A stretch of DNA of 64,000 nucleotides from Gemmatimonadota bacterium (GCA_016794825.1 JAEUJH010000300.1:4095-68094); one strand, 5' to 3'. Shown: positions 1 through 43,839, counted from the first letter of the stretch. Numbers and translations: made by a program. Notes: generated from the letters alone by a model not told the origin.

Positions 1-3000
1 GCGCCGCCGCTATCCGGGCCCTGAGTCAGTCCCTGGGCGGGACGCCCTTCACGACCCTGATGGCGGCGTTCAACGCCCTGCTCTACCGCTACACGGGGCA
101 GGAGGACCTTCTGGTCGGCACCCCGGTGGCGAACCGGAACCTGGTCGAACTGGAGCCACTGATCGGGTTGTTCGTCAGCACGATGGTGGTTCGAACCGCC
201 GTCGACGGCGCTTCGACTCTTCGCGACGTCGAGTTGCGGGTTCGCCACTCGATGCTCGAGGCCGCGGAACATCGGGACTTTCCCTTCGAGAAGATCGTCG
301 AACAGGTGCGCCCCGATCGGAGCCTGGCGCACTCGCCGCTGTTCCAGGTGGCGTTCGTGTTCCACAACACGCCGCTCACCGGGACCTTCGACACCCTCGG
401 CGGCGGGGCCATCTACGAGTTGAGCTTGTTCCTGTCGGACAGCGGCAACGCGATCCACGGGTCGATCGAATTCAACGCCAACCGGTACGACCCCGACACG
501 ATCCGACGCATGGTCGGCCATTTCGTCGCGTTGACCGACGATGCCGTGGCGCACCCGGATCGCCCGATTTCGGCGCTGGCGATGTTGAGCGGGGCGGAGC
601 GGCACAGGTTGTTGGTCGAATGGAACGCCGCCGCCGACCTCGCCGAGCGGGAGGCTTCGGTCGTTCACCGGTTCGAAGCCCAGGTGGCTCGGACGCCGGA
701 TGCCATCGCGGTGGAAGCAGCTGGCGAGACGGGGGCCTCGCTGACCTATCGGGATCTCGATCGACACGCGAATCGGCTGGCGGCGGTGCTGGTGGCACGC
801 GGGGTCGAGCCCGGCGACACCGTCGCGGTCGGCCTGGGCCGTTCCCTCGATTTCGTTGGGGCCATCCTGGCGGTGCTCAAGGCTGGCGCGGCGTACGTCC
901 CGATCGACCCCGCGCTCCCCCGTGACCGGCGCGACGTCCTCCTGGGCGAGGCCCGCGTTCGGCGGATGATCGCTCGCGGTTCGACGTTCCCCGGCGCTTC
1001 GGCCGGCATCGAGCTCGTGGACCTCGACGAGCTCGGACCGGTGCCCGACGAGCGAACCGCCACTCGGCGCCACCGCGATCCCACGCCCGAGTCGGCCGCG
1101 TACGTGATGTTCACATCGGGATCGACCGGACAGCCGAAGGGCGTCGTGATCCCGCACCGGGGTATCACCAGGCTGGTCGTCGACCCCAACTACGTCCAGT
1201 TCACCCCCCACGACGTCGTCCTCGCCGCCGCGCCGGTTTCGTTCGACGCCTCGACGTTCGAGATCTGGGGCGCCCTGCTCAACGGGTGCCGGCTGGTGGT
1301 GTTCCCCGACGGCCCCCCAGAGATCACCGCGCTGGCCGCGGCGCTCGAGCGTCATCGGATCACCATCCTGTGGCTGACCGCCGGGCTGTTCCAGTTGGTC
1401 GTGGAGGCGAGGGTGGACGCCCTGGCGGGCCTCCGTCAGCTGCTCGTCGGGGGTGACGTCGTGTCGCCCTCGCACGCGAAGCGGGCGGCGGCAATCCTGC
1501 GCGACGGGGTGCTGATCAACGGCTACGGGCCGACGGAGAACACCACCTTCACCTGTTGCCACCCGATGCGCGGCCCGGAGGCGGTCCCGGACCCCGTTCC
1601 GATCGGGCGGCCGGTGCGAGGAACCCGGGTCTACCTCCTCGACGCCGCCATGCAGCCGGTGCCCATCGGGGTGCGTGGCGAGCTGTGGACTGGCGGCGAC
1701 GGAGTCGCGCTTGGCTATCTCAATGACGCGGACCTCACGGCCAGTCGGTTCCAACGGGATCCGTTCCGGTCCGAGGTCGACGCCAGGATCTACCGCACCG
1801 GCGATCTGGCCCGCTACCGGTCGGACGGCGTGATCGAGTTCCTCGGCCGGGTCGACGGACAGATCAAGATCCGTGGTTTCCGGGTCGAGCCCGGCGAGGT
1901 CGAATCGGCCCTCCGTCGCCACCCGGCGGTCACGGCAGCCGTTGTGACGGCTCGCGAGTACCGTTCGGGGGACCGGCGCCTGATCGCCTACGCCGTGCTC
2001 GATCCCGACGCCAAGATCTCACCCGACGAGCTCATCGCCTGGCTCCGGCAGCACTTGCCCGAGTACGCCGTGCCGACACGGTGCGTCGTGCTGCCCGCAA
2101 TGCCGCTGACGCGAAACGGCAAGGTCGACTTCGCCGCGCTGCCGGTGCCGGCGGAACGGGGCCCCCAGGCCGCCGCCGCTCCCGACGGACTGGAAACCCA
2201 GTTGATCATCACCTGGGAGCGGGTCCTCGGGATCACCGGCATCGGCCTCGGCGACAACTTCTTCGACCTCGGCGGCAATTCGCTGCTCGGCCTCCAGCTG
2301 CTCGCGGAACTGGAGCGGGCGATGGGCCGTCGGGTACCGGCGGCGGTGCTCTACCAGGGTCAGACGGTCGAGACGATGGCCGCTGTGCTCCGTACCGACG
2401 TCGGCGCGATGTCGTTTGGCACGATCATGATTCAGCCGGGCGGCGAGCGAACGCCGCTGTTCGTCGTGCCCGGCATCAACGGCAACATCATCGGCTACGA
2501 CGTTGTGGCTCGGGCGTTTGGATCGGATCAGCCGTTCTATGGCCTCCGCGCGGTCGGCCTGGACGGGGAGGCCCGTCCCCTCGAGACCATCGAAGCGATC
2601 GCGGCGGCGGCGGTTCGGGAGATCCGCCGGATACAGCCCACCGGGCCCTATCAGCTCCTCGGCTTTTGCATGGGCGGCATGGTGGCGTACGAGGTGGCGC
2701 AACAGCTCCGCGGTGCCGGACAGGTGGTGTCGTTCGTCGGGATGATCGACACCTTCGCACCGGAGCAGATCCCGATGAAGGCCAAGCTGACCCGAACCGG
2801 GCATCAGGTCCGGTTCGTGGCGGGCCGTTTGCGCCGCTACGCCCGGACGTTATCCGGTCTCCCCTGGCGCAAGCGTTGGGGGTTCGTGCGGGAGAAACTG
2901 GGCGTGGCGGCCCAGGTGGTGCAGCAACGGGATCTCTACCGGGGCAACCGGTTCGTTCTGTATCGAGAGCAGGTCTCGGCGGCCAACCAACGGGCCGCGG

Positions 3001-3269
3001 CCCGCTATCGGCCACGACCCTATCCGGGGGCGCTGCACCTGATCATGTCGACGGAACGCGGCGTCGGCAACGAGAACGACTCTCGCACGCTCTGGGCCAG
3101 GCTCGCCGCGCCGGACACCCGGATCCTGTGGACCACGGCGCCCGATTCGGGAGCGGTGCTCCGGTCGCCCTACGCCGAGCAGCTGGCGGCGTCGCTTCGG
3201 CCGCTGCTGCTCGATCGTCCGCCCGGCGCCGCGAGCGGCCCGGTCAGCGGGACGCCGCCGACCGGGTGA
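1..3269 (+). CDS. Non-ribosomal peptide synthetase, terminal module, 5' end cut by window edge: C(partial)-A-PCP-TE
   Basis: Frame 3 is open from nt 3. It shows the C-domain C-terminal half (FNALLYRYTGQEDLLVGTPVANR). A-domain cores are present: FTSGSTGQPKG, NGYGPTE, YRTGDLARY, GRVDGQIKIRGFRVEPGEVE, NGKVD. PCP motif FFDLGGNSLL has its Ser codon at 2280-2282. A C-terminal alpha/beta-hydrolase TE follows. Hand-extracted specificity code is DAFWLGGTFK (Val-like). Confidence 0.95.
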   Translation, partial: AAAIRALSQSLGGTPFTTLMAAFNALLYRYTGQEDLLVGTPVANRNLVELEPLIGLFVSTMVVRTAVDGASTLRDVELRVRHSMLEAAEHRDFPFEKIVEQVRPDRSLAHSPLFQVAFVFHNTPLTGTFDTLGGGAIYELSLFLSDSGNAIHGSIEFNANRYDPDTIRRMVGHFVALTDDAVAHPDRPISALAMLSGAERHRLLVEWNAAADLAEREASVVHRFEAQVARTPDAIAVEAAGETGASLTYRDLDRHANRLAAVLVARGVEPGDTVAVGLGRSLDFVGAILAVLKAGAAYVPIDPALPRDRRDVLLGEARVRRMIARGSTFPGASAGIELVDLDELGPVPDERTATRRHRDPTPESAAYVMFTSGSTGQPKGVVIPHRGITRLVVDPNYVQFTPHDVVLAAAPVSFDASTFEIWGALLNGCRLVVFPDGPPEITALAAALERHRITILWLTAGLFQLVVEARVDALAGLRQLLVGGDVVSPSHAKRAAAILRDGVLINGYGPTENTTFTCCHPMRGPEAVPDPVPIGRPVRGTRVYLLDAAMQPVPIGVRGELWTGGDGVALGYLNDADLTASRFQRDPFRSEVDARIYRTGDLARYRSDGVIEFLGRVDGQIKIRGFRVEPGEVESALRRHPAVTAAVVTAREYRSGDRRLIAYAVLDPDAKISPDELIAWLRQHLPEYAVPTRCVVLPAMPLTRNGKVDFAALPVPAERGPQAAAAPDGLETQLIITWERVLGITGIGLGDNFFDLGGNSLLGLQLLAELERAMGRRVPAAVLYQGQTVETMAAVLRTDVGAMSFGTIMIQPGGERTPLFVVPGINGNIIGYDVVARAFGSDQPFYGLRAVGLDGEARPLETIEAIAAAAVREIRRIQPTGPYQLLGFCMGGMVAYEVAQQLRGAGQVVSFVGMIDTFAPEQIPMKAKLTRTGHQVRFVAGRLRRYARTLSGLPWRKRWGFVREKLGVAAQVVQQRDLYRGNRFVLYREQVSAANQRAAARYRPRPYPGALHLIMSTERGVGNENDSRTLWARLAAPDTRILWTTAPDSGAVLRSPYAEQLAASLRPLLLDRPPGAASGPVSGTPPTG
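2440..3269 (+). other. Thioesterase (TE) domain with Cys in the nucleophile elbow
   Basis: PLFVVPGINGNIIGYDVVARAFGSDQPFYGL, then GFCMGG (Cys codon TGC at 2667-2669) where G-x-S-x-G is expected, then MIDTFAP (Asp). In the C-terminal APDSGAVLRSP segment, Ser occupies the position where the GDH His usually aligns (hand alignment). Confidence 0.8.
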
Positions 3270-3624
3270 CGACGATGAACCAGAGGATGGCGAAGCCGGC
3301 CAGGCTGACCAGCAGGCCGGCCACGGGAAGCACCTTGTCGCGATCGCGCGAGTTGACCAGGCTGCTGAAGCCGAGGCCGGTGCCCAGCCCGGTGGCGAAG
3401 AACAGCCCGAGAATCCCGCCGAGGAGCATCGTGGACTCCGGGTGACTGCGACCGATCGTGACCGCGAGCAGGAAGAACCCGGCAATGCCGCCGACTCCGA
3501 GGACGCAGGACAGGATCGCGAGACGAGAGTAGTATCCAGGCCGTCGGCTGGTGGCGTGCTTGGGGGCCTGGGCCTTGCCCAGGATCAAGCCGGGAGACGG
3601 ATCGGCGTTAGGCACGTAGGACAC
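3244..3624 (-). CDS. Small integral membrane protein, function unknown
   Basis: 126-aa ORF with a GTG start, strongly G/C-biased third codon positions and 3-4 predicted hydrophobic helices (LAILSCVLGVGGIAGFFLLAV, LLGGILGLFFATGLGTGLGF, VAGLLVSLAGFAILWFIVV). Its 3' end overlaps the convergent NRPS gene by 26 nt. No clear SD. Confidence 0.5.
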   Translation of the reverse strand: MSYVPNADPSPGLILGKAQAPKHATSRRPGYYSRLAILSCVLGVGGIAGFFLLAVTIGRSHPESTMLLGGILGLFFATGLGTGLGFSSLVNSRDRDKVLPVAGLLVSLAGFAILWFIVVTRSAASR

Positions 3625-3642: not shown

Positions 3643-3717
3643 ATGGCTAGTATACGGCGCGCCGGGAACCCCGTCCAGAGTGGCGGCGAGGCCGCACCCG
3701 GTCGGGGGGTGGCGTGA
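3643..3717 (+). CDS. Candidate 24-codon leader ORF coupled to the ABC permease
   Basis: A purine-rich SD run GGAGGGGAGGGAAGG (3629-3642) directly precedes ATG 3643. The ORF (MASIRRAGNPVQSGGEAAPGRGVA) ends at TGA 3715-3717, overlapping the permease GTG start at 3714 (GTGA). Confidence 0.2.
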   Translation: MASIRRAGNPVQSGGEAAPGRGVA

Positions 3718-4604
3718 CGGCCACGCCGGTCGCCGTGACCGAGAGCACCCCGCCCAGGTGGCGTCGCGACCTGGTCGACGGGGTGCGGGATACCTGGCGG
3801 GCCCGCGACCTGATCGTGCAGCTCGCCAAGCGCGACATCCGGATCCGCTACAAGGAAGCGGTGATGGGCTTCCTCTGGGCGCTCGTCATGCCGGTTATGG
3901 TGATCCTGTCGGGACTGATCATCAGGACGGCGCTGTCCCGCGCCACCGGGGGGTCGATCGACCGGGCGGTGGTCCTCGGGCTGGGCCTGAAGGGCATCAT
4001 GTGGGGGTTCTTCTCGGCCGCCCTCGGCACCGGGACCACGACCCTGACGAGCGGCGGCAACCTGGTCAGCAAGATCTATTTCCCGCGCGCGGCGCTTCCG
4101 ATCGCCACCACCATCACGGCGGCGCTCGACGCCACGATCGCGCTGACCGCCCTGACCCTGGCGGCCCCGTGGCTCGGCGTCCGGTGGAGCGCGGCCCTCC
4201 TCTGGGTTCCGATCCTCGCCGGCCTTCTGCTCATGATGACCGCGGCCGCGGTGCTCTTCTTCAGTTGCGCCAACGTGTTCTTCCGCGACGTGAAGTACCT
4301 GGTGCAGATGGGCCTCACGTTCGGGATCTTCGTGACACCGGTCTTCTTCGAGCCGGCCATGCTGGGCGGGAACGCCCCCTATCTGATGCTCAACCCCCTG
4401 GCCCCCATCCTGGAAGGCCTGGTGCTCGCCGTTCGTGACGGGCACAACCTCCTCACGCCGCTGATCGCTTCCGGGGCGGATGGCCTGACGGCGATCTGGT
4501 CCCCCTGGTACCTGGGATATTCCGCGGCCTGGGCCGGCGGTGGCCTCTTCCTCGCGGCGGCGATCTTCCGCCGGGCCGAATTCCACCTAGCGGACTTCGT
4601 GTGA
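3714..4604 (+). CDS. ABC-2 type transporter permease (Wzm/TagG-like)
   Basis: The N-terminal RDLIVQLAKRDIRIRYKEAVMGFLWALVMP signature is typical of ABC-2 polysaccharide/teichoic-acid exporter permeases. About 6 hydrophobic segments. Stop overlaps the ATPase start (GTGA at 4601-4604). Confidence 0.85.
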   Translation: MTATPVAVTESTPPRWRRDLVDGVRDTWRARDLIVQLAKRDIRIRYKEAVMGFLWALVMPVMVILSGLIIRTALSRATGGSIDRAVVLGLGLKGIMWGFFSAALGTGTTTLTSGGNLVSKIYFPRAALPIATTITAALDATIALTALTLAAPWLGVRWSAALLWVPILAGLLLMMTAAAVLFFSCANVFFRDVKYLVQMGLTFGIFVTPVFFEPAMLGGNAPYLMLNPLAPILEGLVLAVRDGHNLLTPLIASGADGLTAIWSPWYLGYSAAWAGGGLFLAAAIFRRAEFHLADFV

Positions 4605-5794
4605 GCTCACCGGCCGGCAGGATCGAGGCGATCGCCCTCGGCAAGAAGTATCGGCGAGGCCGCCAGCACGATAGTCTGCGGGACCTGATCCCCGCCGTGG
4701 CCCGGCGGCTGTTCTCGAGCCGCGCCGAGTCCGGGCGGCTTCGGCCGGAGGAGTTCTGGGCCCTGCGGGACGTCAGCTTCGACGTCGGGCCCGGCGATTC
4801 GCTCGGCGTGATCGGACACAATGGGGCCGGCAAGTCGACCCTGCTTCGACTCCTGATGCGGGTGACCCGACCGACCACCGGGCGGTGCCGGATCACCGGG
4901 CGGCTGAGCGGGCTGCTCGAGATCGCCGCGGGCTTTCATCCCGACCTCACCGGCCGAGAGAACATCTGGCTGCAAGCCGCGATCCTCGGCATGAGCCGAG
5001 CGGACATTCAACGGCGCTTCACGGCGATCGTGGACTTTTCGGGCATCGCGGAGTTCATCGATACCCCGGTCAAACGCTACTCGAGCGGGATGATGGCGCG
5101 CCTCGGCTTTTCGATCGCCGCGCACGTCGACCCCGACGCGCTCATCATCGACGAGATCCTGGCCGTCGGCGACCAGCAGTTCCAGGCCCAGGCTTTCGGA
5201 CGGATTCGCGAACTGGTGACCAGCGGCCGGCCCGTCATCCTCGTGTCGCACCAGCTGCCGGCGGTCGAGGAGCTGTGCCGGCGAGCGATCCTGCTTGAGC
5301 ACGGCACGATCGTCCACGAGGGGGCGGCGGCTGAGTGCGTCAAGCACTACCTGGGCACTGCCGGAACCACGTCGCGGCAACTCGCGGAGGATTCGCCGGT
5401 CACCATCGACGCGGTCGAGGCCGTCGATGCCGATCTGGTCCGCTCGGGCGACCGACTCAAGCTCCGGATCACGGCGTCGGTCGGCGGGCCAATCGACGAT
5501 CACCTCGAGCCGATCGCGGTCATCCTCCGCATGACGGCCGGCGGGACGATCCTGGCCGTGGTGGGATCCCGGGAGGCCGGTTTATCGCTTCCAACCGGCG
5601 GGCCAGTCAGTCTGGCGGTTTCGCTCCAGTTGAACGTGGCGCCGGGAATCTATTCGATCGAGGTCGTGGCTTGGGACAAGAAGCGGGAAGTCGCGCTGGC
5701 TTCCGGCCCGCCGGTTTCTGTCCAAGTGCAATCGGGACAACAGTTTCTGGGCCTAGTTCAAACCCACCCGGAAATGCGGATTCTGAGCAAATGA
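4601..5794 (+). CDS. ABC transporter ATP-binding protein, Wzt/TagH type with extra C-terminal domain
   Basis: Walker A GHNGAGKSTL. TagH/Wzt-type block GFHPDLTGRENIWLQAAILGM...FIDTPVKRYSSGMMARLGFSIA, then Walker B LIIDEILAVGD. About 145 additional C-terminal residues lie where the Wzt substrate-binding beta-sandwich sits. Confidence 0.9.
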   Translation: MSSPAGRIEAIALGKKYRRGRQHDSLRDLIPAVARRLFSSRAESGRLRPEEFWALRDVSFDVGPGDSLGVIGHNGAGKSTLLRLLMRVTRPTTGRCRITGRLSGLLEIAAGFHPDLTGRENIWLQAAILGMSRADIQRRFTAIVDFSGIAEFIDTPVKRYSSGMMARLGFSIAAHVDPDALIIDEILAVGDQQFQAQAFGRIRELVTSGRPVILVSHQLPAVEELCRRAILLEHGTIVHEGAAAECVKHYLGTAGTTSRQLAEDSPVTIDAVEAVDADLVRSGDRLKLRITASVGGPIDDHLEPIAVILRMTAGGTILAVVGSREAGLSLPTGGPVSLAVSLQLNVAPGIYSIEVVAWDKKREVALASGPPVSVQVQSGQQFLGLVQTHPEMRILSK

Positions 5795-5837: not shown

Positions 5838-6605
5838 ATGGCTCGAACACCTCCTCGGTGGTTTGTTCGGAGTCGGCCCAATCCCGATGCCCGTGTCCGA
5901 CTGATCTGCTTTCCACACGCCGGTGCGGGTGCTTCGGTCTACCGACTTTGGGGCCCCGACCTGGCTCCGGAGGTTGAGGTTGCGGCGGTGCAACTGCCCG
6001 GACGGGAGTCGCGCTTCACCGAGCCCGCGCCGACCGATCTGCGCGCCGCGGCCGAGGCGGCCGCCGACGCCATTGAGCCTGAGGTCCGCCCGCCCTTTGC
6101 GGTGTTCGGTCACAGCATGGGGGCGTGGCTTGCGTTCGAGTTCACTCGGATCCTCGAGTCGCGAGGTTCACCTCCCGTTCATCTCTTCGTCAGCGGACGA
6201 AGGGCACCGCACACGCCAGAGCGGTTTCCCCCCATGGGAGATCTGAACGACGACGAACTGGTCGCCGAGCTCGATCGGCGGGGTGGCGGGATGGCCCCGG
6301 AGATCCTGGCCAATCGAGAACTGCTGGCGCTGCTGACTCGAACGATGCGAGCCGACGTACGGGCGGTGGAGCGCTACCGGCCGATCGCGTCCGCGCCCAC
6401 CCTGACGGTGAGCCTAACGGCATTCGGGGGAATCGACGATCGGTTCGTGAGTCCGGAGGAGCTCGCCGCCTGGCGGACGACGAGCTCGGCGCCTGTCGCC
6501 GTCGAGATGTTCCCCGGGGGTCATTTCTTCCTCCACGACGATCGACACCAGGTGCTTCGGACCATCAGGACGGTCCTCCTTCCCGAGCCCGCGCCGGCGG
6601 TGTAG
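5838..6605 (+). CDS. Type II (editing) thioesterase
   Basis: RLICFPHAGAGASVYRLW, GHSMGAWLAFEF (GxSxG) and GGHFFL near the C-terminus. ATG 5838 is preferred over the TTG 5817 of the ORF track (GGAG lies 10 nt upstream). Confidence 0.9.
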   Translation: MARTPPRWFVRSRPNPDARVRLICFPHAGAGASVYRLWGPDLAPEVEVAAVQLPGRESRFTEPAPTDLRAAAEAAADAIEPEVRPPFAVFGHSMGAWLAFEFTRILESRGSPPVHLFVSGRRAPHTPERFPPMGDLNDDELVAELDRRGGGMAPEILANRELLALLTRTMRADVRAVERYRPIASAPTLTVSLTAFGGIDDRFVSPEELAAWRTTSSAPVAVEMFPGGHFFLHDDRHQVLRTIRTVLLPEPAPAV

Positions 6606-6840: not shown

Positions 6841-7100
6841 ATGGAGGCGCGCGTGGTACCCCGCCGTCTTCTCCACGCCTCGGTCGACGAGTGCGTGGTG
6901 GTCGAGCGCACCGCGGCCGACGGGTCCCGGGTGTTCCTGGCCTACCTGGTATCGGCGGCACCGCTCAACCTGGACGCCATCGGCTCGGCCCTTCGGAGCG
7001 TGGTCGGCGCGAACGACGTACGGCCCGTCCCGGTTGCGTCGATCCCGCTCCGATCGGATGGGACCGTCGACCTGGAGGCGCTCGCCAGGATTCCGGTGAT
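6841..7100 (+). other. Orphan adenylation-domain C-terminal-subdomain-like fragment at the protein N-terminus
   Basis: LLHASVDECVVVERTAADGSRVFLAYLVSAAPLNLDAIGSALRSVVGANDVRPVPVASIPLRSDGTVDLEALARIP follows the A8-A10 pattern (HPxVxEAVVVxR...RLVAYVV...LP.YM.P..FV.LD.LPLT.NGK.DR.AL). DGT replaces NGK, and no A-core precedes it. Confidence 0.55.
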
Positions 7101-10100
7101 CACCACCGCCACGACGGCGGCATGGGAAGAGGCCCTGCGATCGCGGGTGGGGGCCGGGGTTGCCCTCGTGGTGGACGAGCGCCAGGAGCCGGCCCTTCCG
7201 CTCCACCTTGCCGACCTGCTTCCCGATCGCGTCGAGCAGCCGCTGGGGTCGACTGGTCCGGCGCAGCCGGCGGTCGTCCCCGAGACCGCCAACTCGAGCA
7301 ACCGTCCCCTTGCCCTGGCGGTCGGGGATCCGCTCCCACCAGCGCCGGCGGCCAACCTGCCCGAGGCGCTGCAGGCCGCGGCCCGTCTCGACGCGACCAT
7401 CACCTACATCGCGGCGGACGGTACCAAGACCCAGCAGTCGTATCGTGACCTGCTGGCCAACGCTCGGCGACTGGCGAGCGGCCTACGCCGCCACGGCGTC
7501 GCGGTCGGTGACTTCGTGCTCCTTCAGGCCGGGGCGCCCGGCGAGTTCATCCCGGCGTTCTGGGGCTGCCAGATGGCGGGGGTCGTCCCGATCCCCGTGG
7601 CGCCGGCCTCACCCTACGGCAGCGGTGCGGCGGCGACCGAAGCAATGGTTCGGTCATGGGAAGTCATGGACCGACCGCCGATCCTCAGCGCGGCCTCGGT
7701 CCGAGCCCGGGTCGTCGAAGCGTTCGCCGCGCGGGGCGACCGTCCGCGAATCCTCGAACTCGAGGCACTCGACGGACCGGAGGACGGAGGCCCATCGGCC
7801 GGGCCCGATCCCGAGGCGATCGCGGCCTGCATGATGACGTCGGGCAGCACGGGAATGCCGAAGGGCGTGCTCCTGTCCCATCGGGCCCTGATCAGCCAAG
7901 CCCAGGGATCGATCCTGAGCAACGGCTTGACCCCGGCGGACGCCGTCCTCAACTGGGCTCCCCTCGATCATGTCGGTGGTCTGTCGGCCTGCCACCTGGT
8001 GCCCATGCTGATCGGGGCCCATCAAACCCAGTGCGATGGCGCGCGAATCCTCGAGGATCCGTTGCGGTGGCTCGACCTGATGTCGACCACCGGGTGTACC
8101 GCGACCTTCGCACCGAACTTCGCCTTCGCACTGATCAACGAGCGGCTCGGCTCGGCGCCCGGCCGGACCTGGGATCTCCGCCACGTCAAGGCGTTCTGGA
8201 ACGCCGGCGAGGCGGTAGTGGCCCGGACGGCGCGCCGCTTCCTCCGCCTGCTCGCGCCCCATGGGTTGTCGCCGCGGGCCATGCGGCCCGCCTGGGGCAT
8301 GTCGGAAACCTGCTCGGGGCTGACCTACTCGTCCGCCTTCGACTTCGACACGACGGGGGACGACGATCTGTTCGTCGACGTCGGCGCCCCGAACCCGGGA
8401 ACGGCGTTGCGGATCGTGGCCGCCGACGGGTCGCCGGCTCGGGAAGGCGACGAGGGTGCCCTCGAAGTATCCGGCATGAGCCTCATGGCCGGGTACTTCC
8501 GGAATCCGACGGCGACCGCGGCGGCATTCACGGCGGACGGTTGGTTCCGAACCGGCGACCTGGGTCGAGTCGTCGGTGGACGACTGACCGTGACCGGGCG
8601 GCTGAAGGACGTCTTGATCGTCAACGGGGTGAACCTCCATTGTCACGAAGTGGAGTCGGTGGTCGACGAAGTCGATGGCGTGGTGCCGTCGTACACGGCC
8701 GCATGCGCCGTCCGCGGCAGCCGCGACGCCACCGACCGGGTCGTGATCTTCCTCCACACCAACCGGAGCGACGTCCGAGGACAACGCCAGGTGGTCGCGT
8801 CGGTTCGAGCCGAAGTCGCTCGCCGCTTCGGCGTCCCGCCCGACTACGTGCTTCTCGTCGATCCGGACCGAATCCCCCGGACCAATCTTGGCAAGATCAA
8901 GCGGCCCCAGTTGAGCCAGGCGTTCAGCGAGGGCGCGTTCGCGGTCGAACAGCGTTGGACCGATCGGCTCGAGGGGAATCACCGAACCATCCCCGACTGG
9001 TTCGTGCGGCCCGTCTGGCGGGCCCGGGCGCTCGATGGCCCCTTCGACCCCGATGGCTCCGCGACGGTGGTCGTCTTCGTCGACTCACTGGGCGTCGGCG
9101 ATCGGATCGGGACCGAGTTGGCGCGCGCGGCGCGGAAGTGGATCGCCGTGGTACCCGGATCGGGGTTTGCCGCCCTCGGTCCCGGCCGCTACGCCATCGA
9201 CCCCGAGGCGCCGGACGACGCCAGGCGACTCGCGGCCGAGCTGGCTCGTCAGGGCCAGACGATCGGACCCACCCTTCACGCGTGGGGCATCGAGCCGCCC
9301 GGACCGCCCCCGAGCGACGACGCGGCATCCCGGCGGGCGGTCGCGCGGACGACGGGAAGCGTCCTGCACTGGATCCAGGCCCTCGCGGAGGCCGACGCCC
9401 GAGCGGCCACGGCGCGAGTGATCGTGGCCGCGACCGGGGTGCAGCGGCTCGAGCCAGGCGAGCCGGTCGTCGCCGAACGGGCGGCGGCCCTGGGCCTCGT
9501 GAAGTCGGCCCCACGCGAGCTTCCCTGGCTCGAGTGCCGCCATCTCGACATCGACGATGTCATGGCCGCCGCCCCTCTCATGATTCGGGAACTGGATTCG
9601 GCCGCCGCCGACCAGGAGGTGGCCTATCGGCGCGGCACCCGCCTGGTGGCTCGGCTCGCGCCCGTGGAGTGGCCGGCGCCAACGGTGACGACCCCCGCGT
9701 TCCGGACGGCCGGTCTCTACCTGATCGCCGGTGGGCTGGGCGGGATCGGTTCGGAGGTGGCGGCTCGACTGCTGCGCGAGTTCGACGCGCGGTTGCTGCT
9801 GGTCGGGAGGACGCCGCTCGATCGGCTCGACGCCGAACGAGCCGCCGCGTGGACCGAACTGCGCTCGATCGGGGACGGTCGGGTCCGCTACGTCGCCGCT
9901 GACCTCGCCGACGGCCCCGTGATTCGGGCGGCGGTTCAAGAGGCCGCGGCCGGATTCGGCCGACCGTTGGCCGGGGCGATCCACATGGCAGGCGGATATG
10001 ACGACCGGCCGGTGATGGCGGAGACGATCGCGGGTCTGATCGAGCCGATCGCGCCCCGCCTCCTGGGAGGTCGGGTCCTGGCGAGCCTGCTCGACCGAGA

Positions 10101-36073: not shown

Positions 36074-39000
36074 CCAAACACCGCCACGCGGTTGCGATCG
36101 TCGGGATGGCGGGCCGGTTCCCCGGTGCGCCGAACCTGGAGGCCTTCTGGCGCCAACTCCGGGACGGGATCGAGTCGTTCGAGACGTTCTCGGACGACGA
36201 CCTCCGAGCCGCCGGCGTTCCGCCGGCCGTGGCCGCCCAGTCGCACTACGTCCGACGGGGCACCGTCCTCGAGGACGCCGACCGGTTCGACGCTGGGTTC
36301 TTCGGGCTCTCACCCCGGGAGGCGGAAACCATCGATCCACAGCACCGCCTCTTCCTTGAATGCGCCTGGGAGGCCATCGAGGATGCCGGCTATCCGCCCC
36401 TGCACGTGCCCGGCAGCGTCGGGGTCTTCGCCGGGTGCAGCATGAACACGTACCTGCCGAGCGTGCTGGCTCGAAACCCCGAGGCCATGGCAGCCGCCGG
36501 CGGGTACCAGCTGATGCTCGGCAACGACAAGGATTTCCTCACCACCAGGGTGTCGTACAAGCTGAATCTTCGAGGACCGAGTGTCGCCATCCAGACGGCG
36601 TGCTCGACCTCCCTGGTGGCGGTCCAGGCGGCGTACCAGAGCTTGATCAAACAGCAATGTGACGTGGCTCTCGCCGGTGGGGCCTCCGTCACCTTCCCTC
36701 AGCGAGCCGGGTACCTCTATCAGGAAGGCATGATCTTTTCCCCGGACGGTCACTGCCGGCCGTTCGACGCCAACGGGAAGGGCATTCGATCGGGAGCGGG
36801 CGTCGGGATCGTGATGCTGAAGCGGCTCGAGGACGCGCTGGCCGATGGCGACCCGATCCGGGCGGTGATTCGAGGGGCGGCCATCAACAACGACGGATCC
36901 AACAAGGTCGGCTACACGGCGCCGAGCGTGGAGGGACAGGCGGACGTCATCGCCACGGCCCAGGCGCTCGCCCAGGTCGATCCGGCCACGATCGGCTACG
37001 TCGAGGCCCACGGCACCGGGACCCCGCTGGGCGACCCCATCGAAGTCGCCGCACTGACTCGCGCGTTCCGGGCCCGAACGGACCGCCGGGGGTACTGCGC
37101 GCTCGGCTCGCTGAAGAGCAATCTCGGCCACCTCGACGCCGCCGCCGGGGTGGCCGGCCTGATCAAGACCGTCCTGAGCCTCGAGCACCAGGCACTGCCG
37201 CCGAGTCTCAACTTCGTCACACCGAACCCGGCCATCGATTTCGACGACAGCCCGTTCTACGTCAATACCGCGCTCACGCCCTGGCCGGCGGGCGCCGAAC
37301 CGCGCCGCGCCGGGGTGAGTTCGTTCGGCATCGGCGGCACCAACGCCCACGTCGTCCTCGAGGAAGCCCCGGTCCGCCCCTCGACCGACCCGGCCGACGG
37401 CCCGCACCTGCTGGTGCTCTCGGCCCGGAGCCGCCCCGCGCTCGAGACCGCAACCGCCGCGCTGGCCGACCACCTGGCGGCTCGCCCCGATCTCGATCTC
37501 GCCGACGTGGCCTACACCCTCCAGCTCGGGCGAGAGCCGTTTCCGCATCGCCGTGTCATCGTGGCGGCCAGCGTGAGCGAGGCCCTGCAGGCCATCGCGT
37601 CCCGCGACCCGGAGCGGGTCGTGGGTGGCGAAGCCGGCGCCCGCCGGCCGGTGGTGTTCATGTTCAGCGGCCAGGGCAGCCAGCATCGCGACATGGCGCG
37701 GGGGCTCTATCAACGGGAGGCGGCGTTCCGCCGAGCTTTCGATGCCTGCGCCGATCGATTCGTGCCCCACCTGGGCCTCGACCTTCGCGATGCCGTGTTT
37801 CCGGACCCGGCCCACGCCCAAGGCCCCACCGCCGACCTCGACCAGACCAGCCTGACCCAGCCGGCGCTCTTCGCGGTCGAGTACGCGCTGGCCTCGATGT
37901 GGATGGCCCGGGGCGTCGAACCCGAGGCGATGATCGGACACAGTATCGGTGAGTACGCGGCGGCCTGCCTGGCCGGGGTCTTCACCCTCGACGAGGCCAC
38001 CCGATTGGTCGCGCTCCGGGGCCGCCTGATGCAGTCGATGCCGCCCGGCGCGATGCTCTCGGTGTTCCTGCCCGAAGAGGAGGTCCGGCCTCTCCTGGAG
38101 TCGGCCGTGACGGTGGCGGCGGTCAACGCGCCGGGAATGAGCACCGTGGCCGGTCCGGCCGATGCGATCGGCCGACTCGCGGCTACCCTGACCGCGCGCG
38201 GCGTGGAACATCGGGCCCTGCAGACGTCGCACGCGTTCCATTCGGCGATGATGGACCCGATCCTCGCACCCTTCGAGGCCGCGGTTCGCGAATGCACCCT
38301 GGCGGCCCCCGCCCGCCCGTTCATCTCGAACCTGACCGGCACCTGGATCACCGCGGAAGAGGCAACCGATCCGCGGTACTGGGTCAAGCACCTTCGGCAA
38401 CCCGTCCTGTTCGGTCCGGGTTTGAACACGCTGGCCGCCAATCCGGAGCGGATCTACCTCGAAGTCGGCCCTGGAACCGTCCTGGGCACCTTCGCCCGGC
38501 AGACGGTGGGCCGGGCGGGGCGGCCTGCCGTCGTCATCGCGTCGTTACCGCACCCGAAGCACGCGGCCGCGGCCGATCGTCACGCGCTCACGGCTCTTGC
38601 TCGGCTTTGGATCGCGGGAGCGTCGGTCGATTGGCACCAGGTGCATGGGAGCGCCCGTCGCGGCCGGGTCCGGCTGCCCACCTATCCGTTCGAGCGGCAA
38701 CGATACTGGGTGGACCCGGCAGGCTCGTCCGTCGCCGGCGCGCCCTCGGCCCTCGACAAGCGGCCCGACGTGGACGACTGGTTCGCGGCGCCGACGTGGA
38801 CCCGTTCAGCCGCGGTCGACGGTGCGGCCCCCGAACCAGCCGTCGGCCCGTGGCTCCTCTTCGTCGACGATACCGGGATCGGCGCGGCCATGGCCGCCAG
38901 TCTGGTCCGCCACGACCGATTCGTCACCCGGGTCGAGGTCGGCGCCGACTATCAAGAAGTCGGGCCGGATCACTTCCGGATCGATCCCGGCAATCCGGAT

Positions 39001-40692
39001 CACTACCACCGCCTGCTGACCACCCTCGAGAGCAGCGAACGGTCTCCCACGCGGATCGTCCACTTGTGGACGGTCGGAGCACCGTCGGTCGGCGACGACC
39101 GCCTCGCCGCGGCGGATCGAGCCAGGACCCGGGGGCTCCACAGTCTCCTGTTCCTCGCGCAGGCCACCGGCAACCATCCGAGTCAGCGGACCACCTCGTG
39201 GATCGTCGTCTCGAGCGGCGTCCACGCGGTCGTCGACCCGGCGGAGGCCACCGACCCCGAGAAGGCGATCCTGACGGGGATCTGCCAGGTGATTCCGCTC
39301 GAGTACCAGGGCGTGGCCTGCCGAGTCGTCGACCTCGAACTGCCCGTCGAACCAGCGGGCGTCGCGGCGGCCGCCGAACGACTGGTACGCGAAGCGACCG
39401 TGGACCGCAGCGCCAGCACCATCGCGTATCGCGCTGGCCGCCGCTGGGAGCTGACCTACGAGGCCGTGACACTCCGCCGGCGGCCACCCGCGGCGCTCGC
39501 CCGCCGGGAAGGGGGCGTCTACCTGATCACCGGCGGGACGGGAGGATTGGGCCTGGTGTTCGCCGCCAGCCTGGCCTCCGCCGGAGGAACCCTGGTGCTG
39601 ACGTCGCGATCCGGACTGCCCGATCGAAAGGACTGGGACCGCCTGACCGCGGCCGACCCAACGGGGCGGCAGGCGGTCACGTTGGCCGCGATCCGGGAGC
39701 TCGAGAAGAAGGGGACGACGGTCGAAGTCGTAGCCACCGACGCCGGCAACCCCGACGCGGTGCGAGCCCTGGTGACCGAGTTGCGAAGGCGTCTCGGCGT
39801 CATCCATGGCGTGATCCACGCGGCGGGGGTTCCCGGTGGCGGCATGCTCCAGCTCCGGACCCGGGCGCAGATCGACGAGGTCCTGGCCCCGAAGGTCACG
39901 GGAACCCTGGCCCTGCACGAGGCGCTCCAAGGGAATCCGCTCGACTTCTTCGTCCTCTGCTCCTCCATCAACGCGATCCTGACGGGCCCTGGCGGCGCGG
40001 ATTACTGCGCCGCGAACGCGTTCCTCGATGCCTACGCCCACCACCGGCACGGCCGCGGCGACCGCTCGGTGGTGTCCATCAACTGGGATACCTGGCGCGA
40101 CGTGGGAATGGCCGTCAACGCGATCGTCCCCGCCGACCGCGAAGCGGCCAAGGCGGCGAGCCTGGCCACCGGTATCCTGGCCGAAGAGGGAGTTGCCGCG
40201 CTGGGCCGCATCGTCGGCGCCGAACTCCCCCAAGTGGTGGTGTCGACCCGCGATCTCCAGTTGCTCCGCTACCTCGATACACTCGGTCGAATCGCGAGGG
40301 GCGCGACCACTGGGGGCCAGGGCCCCTCCGGCTCGCTCCCGAGCTCAGCGACCTCGCGGCACCAGCGTCCCGACCTTGGGACCGAGTTCGTCCAGCCGGC
40401 CAGCGATGACGAACGCCGAGTGGCGTCGATCTGGGAGGAGTTGCTGGGCATCGATGGCGTCGGCGTCAACGACAACTTCTTCGAGCTCGGGGGCCATTCC
40501 CTGCTGGCGACTCAGGTCCTGGTGCGGATCCGAGATGCCTTCGGGGTGACCATTCCGCTCGAGGCCGTGTTCGACGCGCCGACCGTCGGACAACTGGCCG
40601 ACCGGATCGGCACGCTGCGATGGATTGTGGAATCGAGCCAACCTTCGACCCGCGAGGAGCCGGACGGCCACCGTGAGGAGTTCGAGATTTAG
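36070..40692 (+). CDS. Type I PKS module: KS - AT(malonyl-type) - KR - ACP with C-terminal docking peptide, no TE
   Basis: ATG 36070 overlaps the upstream TGA (ATGA). KS motifs [19 protein letters not shown] (Cys at 36601-36603), [10 protein letters not shown] and NLGHLD. AT motifs FSGQGSQ, GHSIGE (Ser at 37942-37944) and HAFHS. KR motifs [19 protein letters not shown] and [10 protein letters not shown] motif [10 protein letters not shown] (Ser at 40498-40500). The protein ends ...[25 protein letters not shown]. Confidence 0.95.
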
Positions 40693-40698
40693 CTCCGC

Positions 40699-41868
40699 TC
40701 AGCGCACTGCGGGCAGCACGTAGTTGCGCATCAGCTGGAACGGAAGAAGCTGCTGGGCGGCTGGCTGGTTACCGGTGAACACCACCACCAGGTCGAGCGA
40801 CGGAACCACGAACACGTACTGGCCCCCGATTCCCTGGGCGCTGTAGCCCGAGATCGTCCGGCCGTTCACCGTCCAGCTGTCGATCCACCACTGGTATCCG
40901 TACCCGGCGGCCCCGGGGGCCTGGGCCCTGGTCGACTGCGCCACCCAGGCCGAATCGATCACGCGCCGCCCTTGCCAGGACCCGAACCGAGCATAGAGGA
41001 CCCCGAACTTCATCATGTCGCGAGGCCTGAGGAACAGGCCGCCCCCGGCATGGGTCACTCCGTTGGGATATCGATACCAGAAGTACTGGGTGATGCCGAG
41101 GGGCTGGAACACCCGGGTCGCCGCATACCCGTCGAGCGATTGGTTGACCCGCCGCTTCACCAACTCGCCGAGGAGGTGCGTCAACCCGCTGTTGTAGACG
41201 AAGCGAACCCCGGGATTGGCCGCCTTGGGTCGGGTCACCAGGTAAGTCAGGGGGTCTGGACTGGCGTCCATCTTCCGGTGGTCGTTCGCCGGATCGGTGT
41301 AGTCCGTGCTCGATTCGTCCCAGGCCAGGCCCGCCGACATCGTCAGGAGATGTCGAAACGTCAACGTCGACAGATCCGTCGCCGTCTGGGACGCGTAGTC
41401 CGGGATCGTCGGCGCGATCCGGGTGTCGAGCGTCGGAATCGCCCCGCTCGCCAGGGCGATGCCCACCGCCGCCGAGGTGACGGACTTCGAGACGGAGTAG
41501 AGTTCGTGAAGTGAATCGGCGGTATAGGTGCGGAACTGGCCGTCGAATCGGGCAGTTCCCGCGAAGTACTCCTCCAGGACCAGATCGCCCAGCCGGTAGA
41601 TCAGAATGGCGTGGATGTTTGGAGTTGCCCCGCTCAGGACGGATCGAATCAGCGACGACGTCCTGGCCGTGTCGAGGCCGCGGGCCGCCGCGAACGCTCC
41701 ACCCAGGCCATCACCGCGATCGACCGGGGCCCGATACGCCCACGGGGCTGGTGGTGGCGGGGGCGGGGGCGGGGGCGGCGCGGGCGGACCGGGGGGAGGC
41801 GGGGGGCCCGGGCCCTCCACCTGCCCGCAGGCAACCAGCGCCAGTACCAACAGGAGTCGCCGCATCAT
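40699..41868 (-). CDS. Beta-lactamase-fold serine hydrolase (class C / S12 peptidase family) lipoprotein with polyproline tether
   Basis: Start moved to ATG 41868 (MMRRLLLVLALVACGQ, signal peptide with lipobox LVAC; GGAGGA immediately upstream). The ORF-track N-terminus up to 42423 overlaps the PPTase gene in another frame. SxxK motif SVSK in LHELYSVSKSVTS. A stretch of about 25 residues, GPGPPPPPGPPAPPPPPPPPPPAP, follows the lipobox. Confidence 0.85.
   Translation of the reverse strand: MMRRLLLVLALVACGQVEGPGPPPPPGPPAPPPPPPPPPPAPWAYRAPVDRGDGLGGAFAAARGLDTARTSSLIRSVLSGATPNIHAILIYRLGDLVLEEYFAGTARFDGQFRTYTADSLHELYSVSKSVTSAAVGIALASGAIPTLDTRIAPTIPDYASQTATDLSTLTFRHLLTMSAGLAWDESSTDYTDPANDHRKMDASPDPLTYLVTRPKAANPGVRFVYNSGLTHLLGELVKRRVNQSLDGYAATRVFQPLGITQYFWYRYPNGVTHAGGGLFLRPRDMMKFGVLYARFGSWQGRRVIDSAWVAQSTRAQAPGAAGYGYQWWIDSWTVNGRTISGYSAQGIGGQYVFVVPSLDLVVVFTGNQPAAQQLLPFQLMRNYVLPAVR
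41741..41815 (-). repeat. Polyproline-coding G/C microrepeat (GGGCGG/CCGCCC units)
   Basis: The plus strand reads ...ggtggtggcgggggcgggggcgggggcggcgcgggcggaccggggggaggcggggggcccgggcc..., with three tandem GGGCGG hexamers flanked by degenerate copies. It encodes the Pro run of the lipoprotein. Confidence 0.7.
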
Positions 41869-41903
41869 CCTCCAAACATAGCGCCCGGCGGCCCCCGGAC
41901 CCG

Positions 41904-42620
41904 TTAACCGAAGGACGCGAGCAGCGTCTCCAGCCCGATCAGGCGGGGGGCGACCGCGGCACTCCCCGGCGGCCCCCGGTGGGCGACGGCCCCGACATGA
42001 CCCGGCGGCGGATCCACGAACGCCACCCCCCAGTCGGCCGGGCGCGCAATCGCGGCCGGCATCTCGACGATGGCTGGCGGCGTCGTCTCGCTGAAAGCCA
42101 CCGAGATGGTTGCCGGCTCGCACTGGAGGCCGAGGCCGAGCCCTTTGAGCAACGCCTCCTTGAGGACCCACGTCTGGAAGAACCGGCGCCGGGCCGCGTC
42201 GCCGGGCGCCGGCCAGGCAGCTCGCTCGGACGGCGACAGGACCCGCTCGAACAACGAGGCGACGTCGAGCCGCGGATCGACCGCCTCGACGTCGATGCCG
42301 ACCGGCACCGCGGCCACCGCGCACGCCACCAGGCCCTTGGTGTGCGAGAGACTCACCTGGGGCGTCGGCGTCACCGGTCCGATAACGACCAGCGCGCCGG
42401 CGGCGGTTCGCTCCACCTCCCACTGGGCTACGGGCACGGAGGGATGTCGGAAGGTCAAGGCAAGCCGAAGGAGGCCGTGGGCGGCCGCGTACAGAACCCG
42501 ATCGGGCTCGAACGCGAATCGCTCCAGACGCGCTTGCTCCCAGTCCGCCAGGCCCGGACGGACCCGCTCTACCAGGTCGGGTACCGAACCGGGGACCGGG
42601 AGGAGCCAGGCCTCGATCAC
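41904..42620 (-). CDS. 4'-phosphopantetheinyl transferase, Sfp type
   Basis: GTG start. PPTase motifs VSLSHTKG, VGIDVE and FFQTWVLKEALLKGLGLG (W/F..KEA..K). Confidence 0.85.
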   Translation of the reverse strand: MIEAWLLPVPGSVPDLVERVRPGLADWEQARLERFAFEPDRVLYAAAHGLLRLALTFRHPSVPVAQWEVERTAAGALVVIGPVTPTPQVSLSHTKGLVACAVAAVPVGIDVEAVDPRLDVASLFERVLSPSERAAWPAPGDAARRRFFQTWVLKEALLKGLGLGLQCEPATISVAFSETTPPAIVEMPAAIARPADWGVAFVDPPPGHVGAVAHRGPPGSAAVAPRLIGLETLLASFG

Positions 42621-42636
42621 GGGCGAAACGACCGGC

Positions 42637-43839
42637 TTACTTGGGCCACCCGGATTGCGGTAGCCGGGACGCGATCCGAAGCGCGTTGCCGAAATAGACC
42701 TTCTTCAGCACCGCGTCCGGCAGATCGATGCCGTAGAGCTTCCAGGAGGCGTGGTAGTCGCGATAGTAGTCGAAGTAGTCGTCGCGGGTCTCGAAGACCC
42801 GCCAGTAGTAGGGATACTCCTCCGGCTGGAAGGAGTCCTTCCCGAAGAGGATCCGGTCCTGGAACTTGACGAAGAAATCGTGGGCCGCCCGGGGCTGGCG
42901 CCCGATGTCGTAGAGGACCGCGCCAACTTCGGTGTGAACGTTGGGCAGTTCCTCCATCAACTTGCCCAGCCGCCCGAGGTCGTTGGCGTGCCAGCCCATG
43001 TGCGCGATCACGAACGTGGTCTTCGGATTCCGCCGGAGGAGATTGTCCCGCTCGGTCATCAATTGCTCGAACGGCGGATACTGCTCCGACGGATAGCGCC
43101 GATTCGGGAACAGCGCGAGTTCGAGCCAGCGCTCGTTCTGGAAGTCGATCGGCTGCCAGAACTCCTGCGGATCGGCCGTGTGGATGAACACCGGCAGCTT
43201 GAGCCGCGCCGCCGCCTGCCAGATCGGATCGAGCGCCGGATCGTCGATGGCCAGGCGGGTGCCGTCGGCCTTCTTCGTCGACAGACCAAATCCCTTGCCG
43301 ATCTCACCGATGCCCACCGCGCCCGCCGCCACGTCGGCTTCCAGCTGGGCCACCGCCCGCTCGGCCCATCCCGGACCGACGTTGCGAAGATCGATCCCGG
43401 TCAGGAACCGGACCCGGTCCTTCATCGTGGCCGAGGCCTGGACCAGCGCGCTCTGACGGGTCAGCGCCTCGCCGGAGACGTTGTTGGCGGCGACGATCAG
43501 GCGCACGTTGATCCCGTCGAGCGCCCGGCCCAACTCCTCGAGCCCCTCGGCGCTGCTCAGTTGGCTGGTCGGATGGCCGTGGAAATCGATGGCCGGGTAC
43601 TTGGCCTTCGGCACGGCGTGCGCGGGAGCCACCAGCGTCGACCGGGGCCGATAGTCGAGAATGCTGGGCGGCGGCAGCGTGGGAGCCTGACAGTTGCGGG
43701 GGCGAACTTCGGTCATTCCCGGAGGGCATGATTCGCCGGGCTGAATCGTCACCCCCGGGTTGCGACCCGGCTGGGCCACGACGACGGCGGTAAACGACAG
43801 GGCGGCGAGCGGGAACAGAGCGGCGGCACGACGGACCAT
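42637..43839 (-). CDS. Secreted amidohydrolase-family (TIM-barrel metal hydrolase) protein
   Basis: N-terminal signal peptide MVRRAAALFPLAALSFTAVVVAQP. Metal-ligand style motifs IDFHGHP, VFIHTADP and VIAHMGWH, with an ILFGKDS tail typical of amidohydrolase-2-like proteins. Confidence 0.75.
   Translation of the reverse strand: MVRRAAALFPLAALSFTAVVVAQPGRNPGVTIQPGESCPPGMTEVRPRNCQAPTLPPPSILDYRPRSTLVAPAHAVPKAKYPAIDFHGHPTSQLSSAEGLEELGRALDGINVRLIVAANNVSGEALTRQSALVQASATMKDRVRFLTGIDLRNVGPGWAERAVAQLEADVAAGAVGIGEIGKGFGLSTKKADGTRLAIDDPALDPIWQAAARLKLPVFIHTADPQEFWQPIDFQNERWLELALFPNRRYPSEQYPPFEQLMTERDNLLRRNPKTTFVIAHMGWHANDLGRLGKLMEELPNVHTEVGAVLYDIGRQPRAAHDFFVKFQDRILFGKDSFQPEEYPYYWRVFETRDDYFDYYRDYHASWKLYGIDLPDAVLKKVYFGNALRIASRLPQSGWPK

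Follow-up and report, generated by a model that had tools for sequence, protein, structure and literature searches.

The DNA analysed here is a 64,000-nt stretch from a Gemmatimonadota bacterium (GCA_016794825.1, JAEUJH010000300.1:4095-68094), which we refer to as the window and which has a G+C content of 67-72% throughout. Positions 1-43839 hold a hybrid gene cluster for nonribosomal peptide synthetases (NRPS) and polyketide synthases (PKS). Seven large reading frames on the + strand, all synthase genes (g1-g7), fill positions 1-40692. We used Pfam to assign their domains, which are condensation (C), adenylation (A), thiolation (T), thioesterase (TE), methyltransferase (MT), ketosynthase (KS), acyltransferase (AT), ketoreductase (KR), acyl carrier protein (ACP) and TubC_N docking (dock) domains. 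The first gene, g1, runs in across the window edge, ends at 3269 and reads C(part)-A-T-TE; g2 (6841-14289) combines a loading module with module 1 and reads pseudo-Asub N part-AMP-binding-psiKR/KR-T-C-A-T; g3 (14286-18809) and g4 (18806-23218) both read C-A-MT-T; g5 (23250-31220) reads TubC_N dock-C-A-T-KS-AT-KR-ACP; g6 (31217-36073) reads C-TubC_N dock-C-A-T; and g7 (36070-40692) reads KS-AT-KR-ACP. These strings give six NRPS elongation modules, two PKS modules and one loading module, nine in all, in agreement with a first-pass annotation of this DNA that had counted seven synthase/synthetase genes with at least six NRPS and two PKS modules. The same annotation had described a hybrid line with its own exporter, type II thioesterase and phosphopantetheinyl transferase (PPTase), and matches to PF01061, PF00005, PF00975 and PF01648 bear this out. 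The cluster extends over ~44 kb, and the complete line covers ~45 kb once the part of g1 beyond the window edge is included.

The seven-synthase NRPS-PKS cluster is genuine and intact, and belongs to an uncultured soil member of the Gemmatimonadales. Its synthase frames are open over ~40 kb and are coupled by start/stop overlaps of the form ATGA, as at g3 and g4, where the ATG overlaps the preceding stop. The HHxxxDG motif is kept in all seven C domains, and the A3, A10 and carrier Ser (GGxS) motifs are also found. Over 13.3 kb, contig JADZCZ010000421.1 of GCA_020851315.1 and the window share 99.8% identity, with one 1-nt indel (at 3618), which falls at the 5' end of a small open reading frame or in the intergenic stretch beside it. 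Two ENA metagenome contigs, which also contain this g6, match g5-g7 and the genes beyond them at 99.6-99.8% identity. In all, three other assemblies are 99.6-99.8% identical to the window across the shared parts, and the frames are open in four assemblies. A myxobacterial origin, to which the 70% GC, the TubC_N domains and the Ser/Thr kinases with TPR repeats might point, was rejected because g1 matches a metagenome-assembled Gemmatimonadales genome at 100% protein and 99.8% DNA identity.

Pfam places the sole TE on the gene that ends at 3269, the first in the cluster; hence, gene order is not colinear with the order of the modules, as the first-pass annotation had also stated. That annotation had further proposed that the line continues upstream, with part of it outside the window. 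We found that the part of g1 inside the window is 100% identical to a protein of 1390 aa (P0001) from an NCBI metagenome-assembled genome (MAG) of the Gemmatimonadales, with the architecture TubC_N (PF18563)-C-A(Val)-T-TE. Only the first 302 aa of g1, comprising the docking domain and the start of the C domain (~0.9 kb), thus lie beyond the window, and on JADZCZ010000421.1 they are preceded by a 350-bp gap and then by a divergent amidohydrolase gene. Upstream of P0002, an orthologue of g1 with 63% identity, there are housekeeping genes with SRP54-family and ribosomal S16 domains. Within the window, Pfam locates the partial C domain of g1 at 9-614, the A domain at 672-2123, the T domain at 2202-2387 and the TE at 2454-3227, and the A-domain code, DAFWLGGTFK, specifies Val. 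The gene is a complete module with a docking domain at its head.

Each synthase that precedes, or would precede, a docking-domain protein ends in a short acidic tail: g4, encoded immediately before g5, ends in WEEGEL, and g7 ends in REEFEI. Comparable tails occur in two related loci, L004 (1873-14909; REEFEV) and L008 (3375-22346; REDFQL and REEIEL), where the cassette dock-C-A-T / KS-AT-KR-ACP / dock-C-A-T-TE is colinear. The two A domains of the L004 cassette are coded for Gly and for Val, and its TE gene is followed by one for a PPTase. The recurrence of this cassette suggests that the last three modules travel as a unit. Both loci are on lower-GC MAG contigs (52-54% GC), that of L008 from Anaerolineaceae; the TE is of the Cys type in L004 and of the Ser type in L008. 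Because g1 is a complete docking-headed module, and because the acidic tails pair as they do in the colinear relatives, the order of action would be g2-g3-g4-g5-g6-g7-g1. We conclude that the line is probably complete, and we give about three chances in four to the reading of the locus as a complete hybrid NRPS-PKS cluster acting in this order.

The start of this line differs from what had been proposed. The first-pass annotation had read the beginning of g2 as "Asub-FAAL-KR-ACP", with a fatty acyl-AMP ligase (FAAL) providing a lipid start. The KR and the carrier hold up, the FAAL does not, and the "Asub" is the N-terminal half of a pseudo-Asub. One unbroken alignment of ~1200 residues joins g2 (residues 118-1327) to PDB chain 6ulw_A (E 1.2e-167), the solved A-KR-pseudoAsub keto-acid module, while the matches to McyG (E 2e-118), to the FAAL 3pbk (E ~1.3e-45 to 3e-44) and to FadD32 (~1e-26) are weaker. 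With 6ulw as its closest structure and the FAALs far behind, the ligase does not belong with the FAALs. Keto-acid ligases (KALs) are distinguished by the hydrophobic replacement of Asp235 and by a Gly-Met motif, of which a backbone carbonyl contacts the 2-oxo group, and in KAL modules the pseudo-Asub is completed by N-terminal elements (PMC13643306). Both hallmarks are present in g2: the residue equivalent to Asp235 is Val (PLDH-V-GG), as it is in 120/120 of the nearest relatives (the reference KALs have Val or Ile), and the Gly-Met motif reads WGMSE, with Gly-Met again in 120/120 of the nearest relatives.

Along g2, the loading module begins with the N part of the pseudo-Asub (6841-7140; SDGTVD, A10 Lys absent), followed by the KAL, placed by its motifs and by the 6ulw alignment (7390-8946), the psiKR and KR (9127-10485; Lys->Arg at 10057-10059 and Asn->Ser at 10177-10179), the C part of the pseudo-Asub, recognised by an A10-like motif after the KR (10486-10626), and the loading T domain (10642-10845). 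The ligase keeps its own A10 Lys, and A10-like motifs that have no Lys stand at both ends of the ligase-KR unit, namely SDGTVD at the N-terminus and LPRTDAGAIDRRAL after the KR, as they do in the family; the post-KR segment aligns with the A10 motif of LgrA. By these motifs, a split pseudo-Asub flanks the ligase and the KR. Since g2 starts with a keto-acid ligase-KR-T module of this kind, the predicted starter is a 2-oxo acid and not a lipid; such modules normally reduce the 2-oxo acid to the 2-hydroxy acid.

For the elongation modules, we took the A-domain codes from a MAFFT alignment with GrsA, in which the control gave DAWTIAAICK. The domains, all on the + strand, were placed by Pfam and the code alignment. 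Module 1, in g2, consists of C (11098-12420), A (12487-13932; DVWHISLVDK, Ser) and T (14020-14202). In g3, a C domain (14415-15737) is followed by an A domain with the code DALFMGLTLK that encloses an MT (17316-17693), and by a T domain (18543-18734); this code is aliphatic, with the exact residue not resolvable. The same arrangement is found in g4, with C at 18818-20152, an A domain for Asn (DLTKVGEVGK) enclosing an MT at 21713-22132, and T at 22958-23149. The NRPS half of g5 has a dock (23262-23405), C (23463-24812), A (24870-26306; DAFFLGVTFK, Ile) and T (26382-26579), and its PKS half has KS (26661-27779), AT (28221-29111; GHSIGE/GAFH), KR (29466-30644) and ACP (30903-31085). In g6, the A domain (34295-35722) has the code DILQLGMIWK, for Gly, and precedes a T domain (35816-36004). 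The last of these genes, g7, has KS (36088-37215), AT (37654-38607; GHSIGE/HAFH, of the malonyl type), KR (38899-40101) and ACP (40417-40608).

Three of the calls are backed by reference codes: DAFWLGGTF of CesB for Val, DAFFLGITF of the didemnin isostatine module for Ile, and DILQLGLVW of L004 for Gly. The Ser (g2) and Asn (g4) calls follow the canonical Stachelhaus codes. The MT domains of g3 and g4 are embedded in the A domains and have the motifs of NRPS N-methyltransferases, VL(E/D)(I/V)GCGTG and NELTx(F/Y)R(Y/F)D. Both KS domains have the Cys/His/His residues (QTACSTS, HGTG/HGTA and N(I/L)GH). The KR domains of g5 and g7 have Lys, Ser and Tyr, and the LDD motif is absent from both. We looked along the assembly line for epimerisation (E) domains and for dual E/C motifs, and found none. 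The building blocks that the first-pass annotation had read by hand (Ser, aliphatic, Asn, Ile and Gly) are the same in the GrsA-controlled alignment, and its string Ser-(NMe-aliphatic)-(NMe-Asn)-Ile+C2(OH)-Gly+C2(OH) agrees with the codes and domains. The predicted chain is 2-hydroxy(or oxo)acyl-Ser-NMe-X-NMe-Asn-(Ile+C2, beta-OH)-(Gly+C2, beta-OH)-Val.

From these features we infer an order of action, a chemistry for each step, a mode of release and a product. The loading module of g2 would adenylate a 2-oxo acid and normally reduce it to the 2-hydroxy acid, and g2 would then add Ser. An N-methylated aliphatic residue would be added by g3, and N-methyl-Asn by g4. Addition of Ile by g5, with malonate extension and reduction of the ketone, would give an isostatine-type gamma-amino-beta-hydroxy acid. 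Gly would be added by g6, and g7 would extend it with malonate and reduce it to a 4-amino-3-hydroxybutyrate (GABOB) unit. The synthase encoded first, g1, would be recruited last, through its N-terminal beta-hairpin docking domain onto the tail of g7, and would add Val and bear the release domain. The PPTase would prime the nine carrier domains, the type II thioesterase would edit the line or assist release, and the ABC-2 transporter would export the product.

The accessory genes lie between g1 and g2 and downstream of g7. A small membrane protein of 123 aa is encoded on the - strand at 3244-3615, overlapping the 3' end of g1; it has a weak match to MFS_1 and is called as a gene in L001. In L007, a homologous small open reading frame occupies the corresponding position beside the orthologue with 63% identity to g1. 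The gene, which the first-pass annotation had not listed, is thus probably genuine and conserved as part of the cluster. Its start at 3624 is probably wrong because of the 1-nt indel at 3618, and we therefore took 3615. On the + strand there follow an ABC-2 permease (3714-4604; PF01061, E 2.7e-10, with a Wzm-like NCBIfam match below the curated cut-off), an ABC ATPase of the Wzt/TagH/DrrA-like type with a C-terminal extension (4601-5794; PF00005, NCBIfam matches below cut-offs) and the type II thioesterase (5838-6605; PF00975, E 2.4e-52, motifs GHSMG and GGH, start as in L001). Downstream of g7, on the - strand, are a serine hydrolase of the beta-lactamase fold (40699-41865; PF00144, E 2.9e-35, motifs SVSK and YNS), the PPTase, of the Sfp/HetI type (41904-42620; PF01648, E 1.9e-14, with a HetI-like NCBIfam match below cut-off), and an Amidohydrolase_2 protein with a signal peptide (42637-43839; PF04909, E 5.7e-21). 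The PPTase that had been proposed for the cluster is also called in an independent assembly (as ACPS in L002).

The serine hydrolase has a lipoprotein signal (LVAC) and a long Pro-rich linker. Given this signal and the signal peptide of the amidohydrolase, both proteins are probably exported. Their membership of the pathway is uncertain; if they are members, their target would be the secreted product, for its maturation or for resistance to it, rather than the assembly line. The catalase-peroxidase gene that starts at 43966 and the kinase, helicase and sigma-factor genes beyond it look unrelated. Among these, two Ser/Thr kinases with TPR repeats are encoded at 46845-49604 and 57018-59543, and an extracytoplasmic function (ECF) sigma factor gene abuts the first (49601-50218, - strand). 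A 688-aa protein (60103-62169, - strand) is LanC-like in its C-terminal domain and weakly matches a hydrolase in its N-terminal part. None of these genes has an evident link to the cluster.

Several observations weigh against a complete line that acts in the order given above. First, contig JADZCZ010000421.1 ends 1.1 kb upstream of g1, and there may be more genes further up. Second, the ligase pocket of g2 is unusual, in that about six of the residues lining it differ from the consensus of the family (for example, Trp where relatives have Leu, Val or Ile). Comparison with references for ketoisocaproate (KIC), ketoisovalerate (KIV) and phenylpropanoid substrates gave no prediction, the pocket being too different. 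Third, in the loading KR, Arg takes the place of the catalytic Lys, and Ser takes that of the Asn (within 10051-10071 and 10162-10179), with Ser, Tyr and the NADPH motif intact. Homologous loading KRs have the Lys in 118/120 and the Asn in 104/120 cases, and the Ces, Did and CrpD references have both. Because of these substitutions, reduction may be weak or lost and the starter left as the 2-oxo acid. The fourth and fifth observations concern g6, where two intact C domains stand before a single acceptor and the internal dock lacks a dedicated partner tail, which makes the route through g6 uncertain, and the TE of g1, in which the nucleophile is Cys and the triad His is missing. We consider these two in turn.

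The first C domain of g6 (C1, 31352-32656; HHIAVDG at 31748-31768) is separated from the second (C2, 32873-34228; HHIISDG at 33272-33292) by an internal TubC_N dock (32675-32818). The core motifs are complete in both C domains, and they are equally complete in P0228, an orthologue with 54% identity and 1618 aa that has the same architecture and is apparently followed by a KS-AT-KR-ACP gene. We ruled out a misassembly as the source of the C-dock-C arrangement, since it recurs in three further assemblies of the species and in P0228. C1 looks ordinary, with Txo2, Txo1 and TycC as its best PDB matches. We also rejected C1 as an epimerisation domain, because no E structure was found among 48 matches and the FNYLG, EGHGRE and dual E/C motifs are absent. 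C2 has its orthologues in the dock-C units of relatives' Gly modules (45-56%). The start of the internal dock, MSTADFL, resembles the N-terminus of g1, MSTSVTD, which suggests that it is the fossil start codon of a fused gene. The tail of g5 is of the helical type, as at the junction of g2 with g3, and the internal dock has no dedicated partner tail.

A C1-dock alignment scan yielded four metagenome candidate loci that reach the dock region, and C-dock-C is absent from all four, the patterns being the generic C1 motif. No orthologue of g6 was found in the metagenome scan or, among the matches listed, in the genome-collection scan. A representative-library search, in which giant multi-module NRPSs dominated, showed tandem C domains with another linker in two large NRPSs, P0404 (aa 337-1300) and P0489 (aa 1775-2737), which both have the order T-C-C-A-T, two C domains with the His motif and a linker of ~80 aa that is not TubC_N; hence, tandem C domains are rare but recurrent outside this cluster. 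In the fungal PfaA, from the PF1163A pathway, one amide bond depends on both C domains, for a reason that is unknown (PMC11731387). Like g6, PfaA passes from an ACP to C1-C2-A-T with the His motif in both C domains; unlike g6, it is a single fungal polypeptide without a dock between the C domains, whereas the junction in the window spans two proteins (g5 and g6).

An alternative to a linear passage through g6 is a line that branches or in part iterates. In this reading, the internal dock of g6 would accept the tail of g4, so that g5 is skipped, or the tail of g7, for a second Gly-C2 round, and more than one product would result; C1 and C2 would then be alternative entry gates to one Gly-T acceptor. 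The retention of all core motifs in C1 and C2, in P0228 as well, is consistent with this, as is the count of three docking domains to only two acidic tails. The helical tail of g5 suits the N-terminus of C1 more than a docking domain, and the orthologues of C2 are the dock-C units of Gly modules fed directly by a docking partner. However, the evidence for branching is all architectural. C1 is the fastest-evolving C domain, with 41% identity between orthologues compared with 56% for C2, which fits relaxed constraint, and the fossil Met of the internal dock fits a relic of gene fusion. Moreover, tandem C domains exist without a dock (P0404, P0489), and PfaA requires both of its C domains for one bond (PMC11731387). 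We regard a branched or iterative line as unlikely, and a linear line ending with g1 as the better account of the cluster.

The nucleophile motif of the g1 TE, GFCMGG (2661-2678), is invariant in our TE alignment (A3), and no invariant His was found in that alignment. At the His position, g1 has Asp-Ser-Gly (APDSG, ~3144-3152). The pattern (G/A)xDSG is shared by 20 of the 21 Cys-type relatives, down to 35% identity, whereas the Ser-type relatives have PG(D/N)H. An AlphaFold model of the g1 TE (predicted local distance difference test score, pLDDT, 86) has an ordinary TE fold, with DSG in the loop after the last strand and the invariant Asp after beta7. The Cys thioesterases SulM, ObiF1 and AB3403 retain the His after beta8, and in SulM and ObiF1 the Asp follows strand beta7 (PMC11298585). 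AB3403 (4zxh), SulM and ObiF1 resemble the g1 TE in their GxCxG nucleophile, SulM and ObiF1 also in the Asp after beta7, and 4zxh is among the best matches of the g1 TE by both sequence and fold, but 4zxh has PGDH where g1 has DSG. Without the triad His, release may need another enzyme; a canonical type II thioesterase gene adjoins the g1 region. Since the combination of Cys and no His is common to 20 of the 21 Cys-type relatives, we interpret it as a conserved variant and not as a lesion.

This bears on a second alternative, in which a cluster in decay, or a silent one, yields no product, and the odd catalytic residues reflect loss of function. The Lys->Arg and Asn->Ser substitutions in the loading KR, the TE without His and the extra C domain could all be read in this way. 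However, ~40 kb of synthase frames are uninterrupted, with ATGA overlaps, the other catalytic motifs are intact, the TE variant is the rule among its Cys-type relatives, and the frames are open in four assemblies. We consider decay or silence very unlikely.

The first-pass annotation had not recognised the domain string as any characterised pathway, and we likewise found no counterpart. We retrieved relatives of g1, g6 and the loading module as the best 120 matches each from 5.8 billion proteins; no characterised protein is among the best 120 matches for any of the three. Outside the species, the best identities are 63% for g1, 54% for g6 and 40% for the whole loading module, in each case to a metagenome protein. 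Among the matches listed from 185,579 species genomes (one per species), the best 80 relatives of g6 are at most 49% identical and are generic NRPS. A literature search found no paper that combines isostatine, 4-amino-3-hydroxybutyrate and N-methylasparagine, and the papers on Gemmatimonadota biosynthetic gene clusters are apparently metagenomic surveys. The orphan status of the cluster is thus supported, although not proven.

The cluster could instead encode, or closely resemble, a pathway that has already been characterised and has an entry in MIBiG, and single steps are indeed familiar: didemnin has the formation of isostatine from Ile by KS-KR, a KAL-KR and N-MT modules, and microsclerodermin has the extension of Gly by C2 to GABOB. 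The searches above speak against it, as do the didemnin (by its pTM3 domain map), cryptophycin and cereulide clusters, in which the module order is unlike that of the window and the KAL is only 31-42% identical. We therefore think it scarcely likely that the product is already known. Least likely of all is a FAAL-started lipopeptide line that has more modules beyond the upstream edge of the window. Although the g2 ligase belongs to the ANL superfamily, weakly matches FAALs (3pbk, FadD32 and FadD28) and is assigned by Pfam only to the generic AMP-binding family, and although the TE gene g1 is truncated by the window edge, the loading module is far nearer to 6ulw than to any FAAL, with Val235, Gly-Met and a KR between pseudo-Asub halves, and g1 is a complete single module that has its own N-terminal docking domain and a non-synthase upstream neighbour.

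Orphan NRPS-PKS clusters in MAGs number many thousands; hence, the finding of another is in itself unsurprising. Nevertheless, we know of no characterised NRPS/PKS assembly-line product from Gemmatimonadota, a widespread soil phylum, and this cluster, if expressed, would offer a first look at the assembly-line chemistry of the phylum. Gamma-amino-beta-hydroxy acids are the pharmacophore of statine-type protease inhibitors, and the predicted product would have two such units and two N-methyl amides, with possible activity. The corrections made here render the cluster usable: it is probably complete in ~45 kb, its gene order differs from its module order, and its starter should be sought among 2-oxo acids. 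The Cys/no-His TE and the tandem C domains pose minor yet genuine questions for NRPS enzymology. A bolder proposal is that the cluster makes a new family of statine-type N-methylated peptide-polyketides by means of two mechanisms that are not known to have been described: a TE family that relies on Cys without a catalytic His, and a two-gate C-dock-C entry by which one Gly module would accept chains from two upstream partners, in programmed skipping or iteration; we offer this as a speculation that is doubtful at present.

The closest parallels to individual parts of the line come from characterised systems. The order pseudo-Asub(N)-ligase-KR-pseudo-Asub(C)-T is common to g2, StsA (6ulw/6ulx), CesA and CrpD-M2, and in StsA and CesA such a module likewise opens the line. 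The g2 ligase is 31-42% identical to those of CesA, CesB, StsA, CrpD-M2 and the didemnin Hiv module; CrpD-M2, from the cryptophycin pathway, and the didemnin Hiv module are ~40% identical to the g2 loading module, and CesA and CesB are 31-35% identical. The differences are in the pocket, where g2 has Ser/Ala/Cys and Ala/Phe/Trp compared with Val/Met/Phe and Phe/Ile/Leu in its keto-acid module relatives, in the KR, where the substitutions Lys->Arg and Asn->Ser set g2 apart from cereulide-type keto-acid modules, and in the bond that would follow, which is an amide to Ser in g2 and the beginning of a depsipeptide repeat in the cereulide type. With the TubC_N docking system of myxobacterial and other NRPS/PKS lines, the cluster shares PF18563 at the N-termini of g5 and g1 and partners that end in acidic tails. 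It differs in the third copy inside g6, which has no spare tail and which, among the sequences examined, otherwise occurs only in the orthologue P0228.

The most extensive resemblance is to the didemnin cluster (did), on plasmid pTM3 of Tistrella mobilis. It also has A-MT modules, an Ile module followed by KS...KR for isostatine, and a KAL module; its Ile code differs from that of g5 at one of nine positions, and a did KS is 54% identical to the g7 KS. However, the number, order and residues of the didemnin modules are different, and its map has neither a Gly-C2 unit nor TubC_N docks. With no overall colinearity between the two, we conclude that the cluster in the window is not of the did type.

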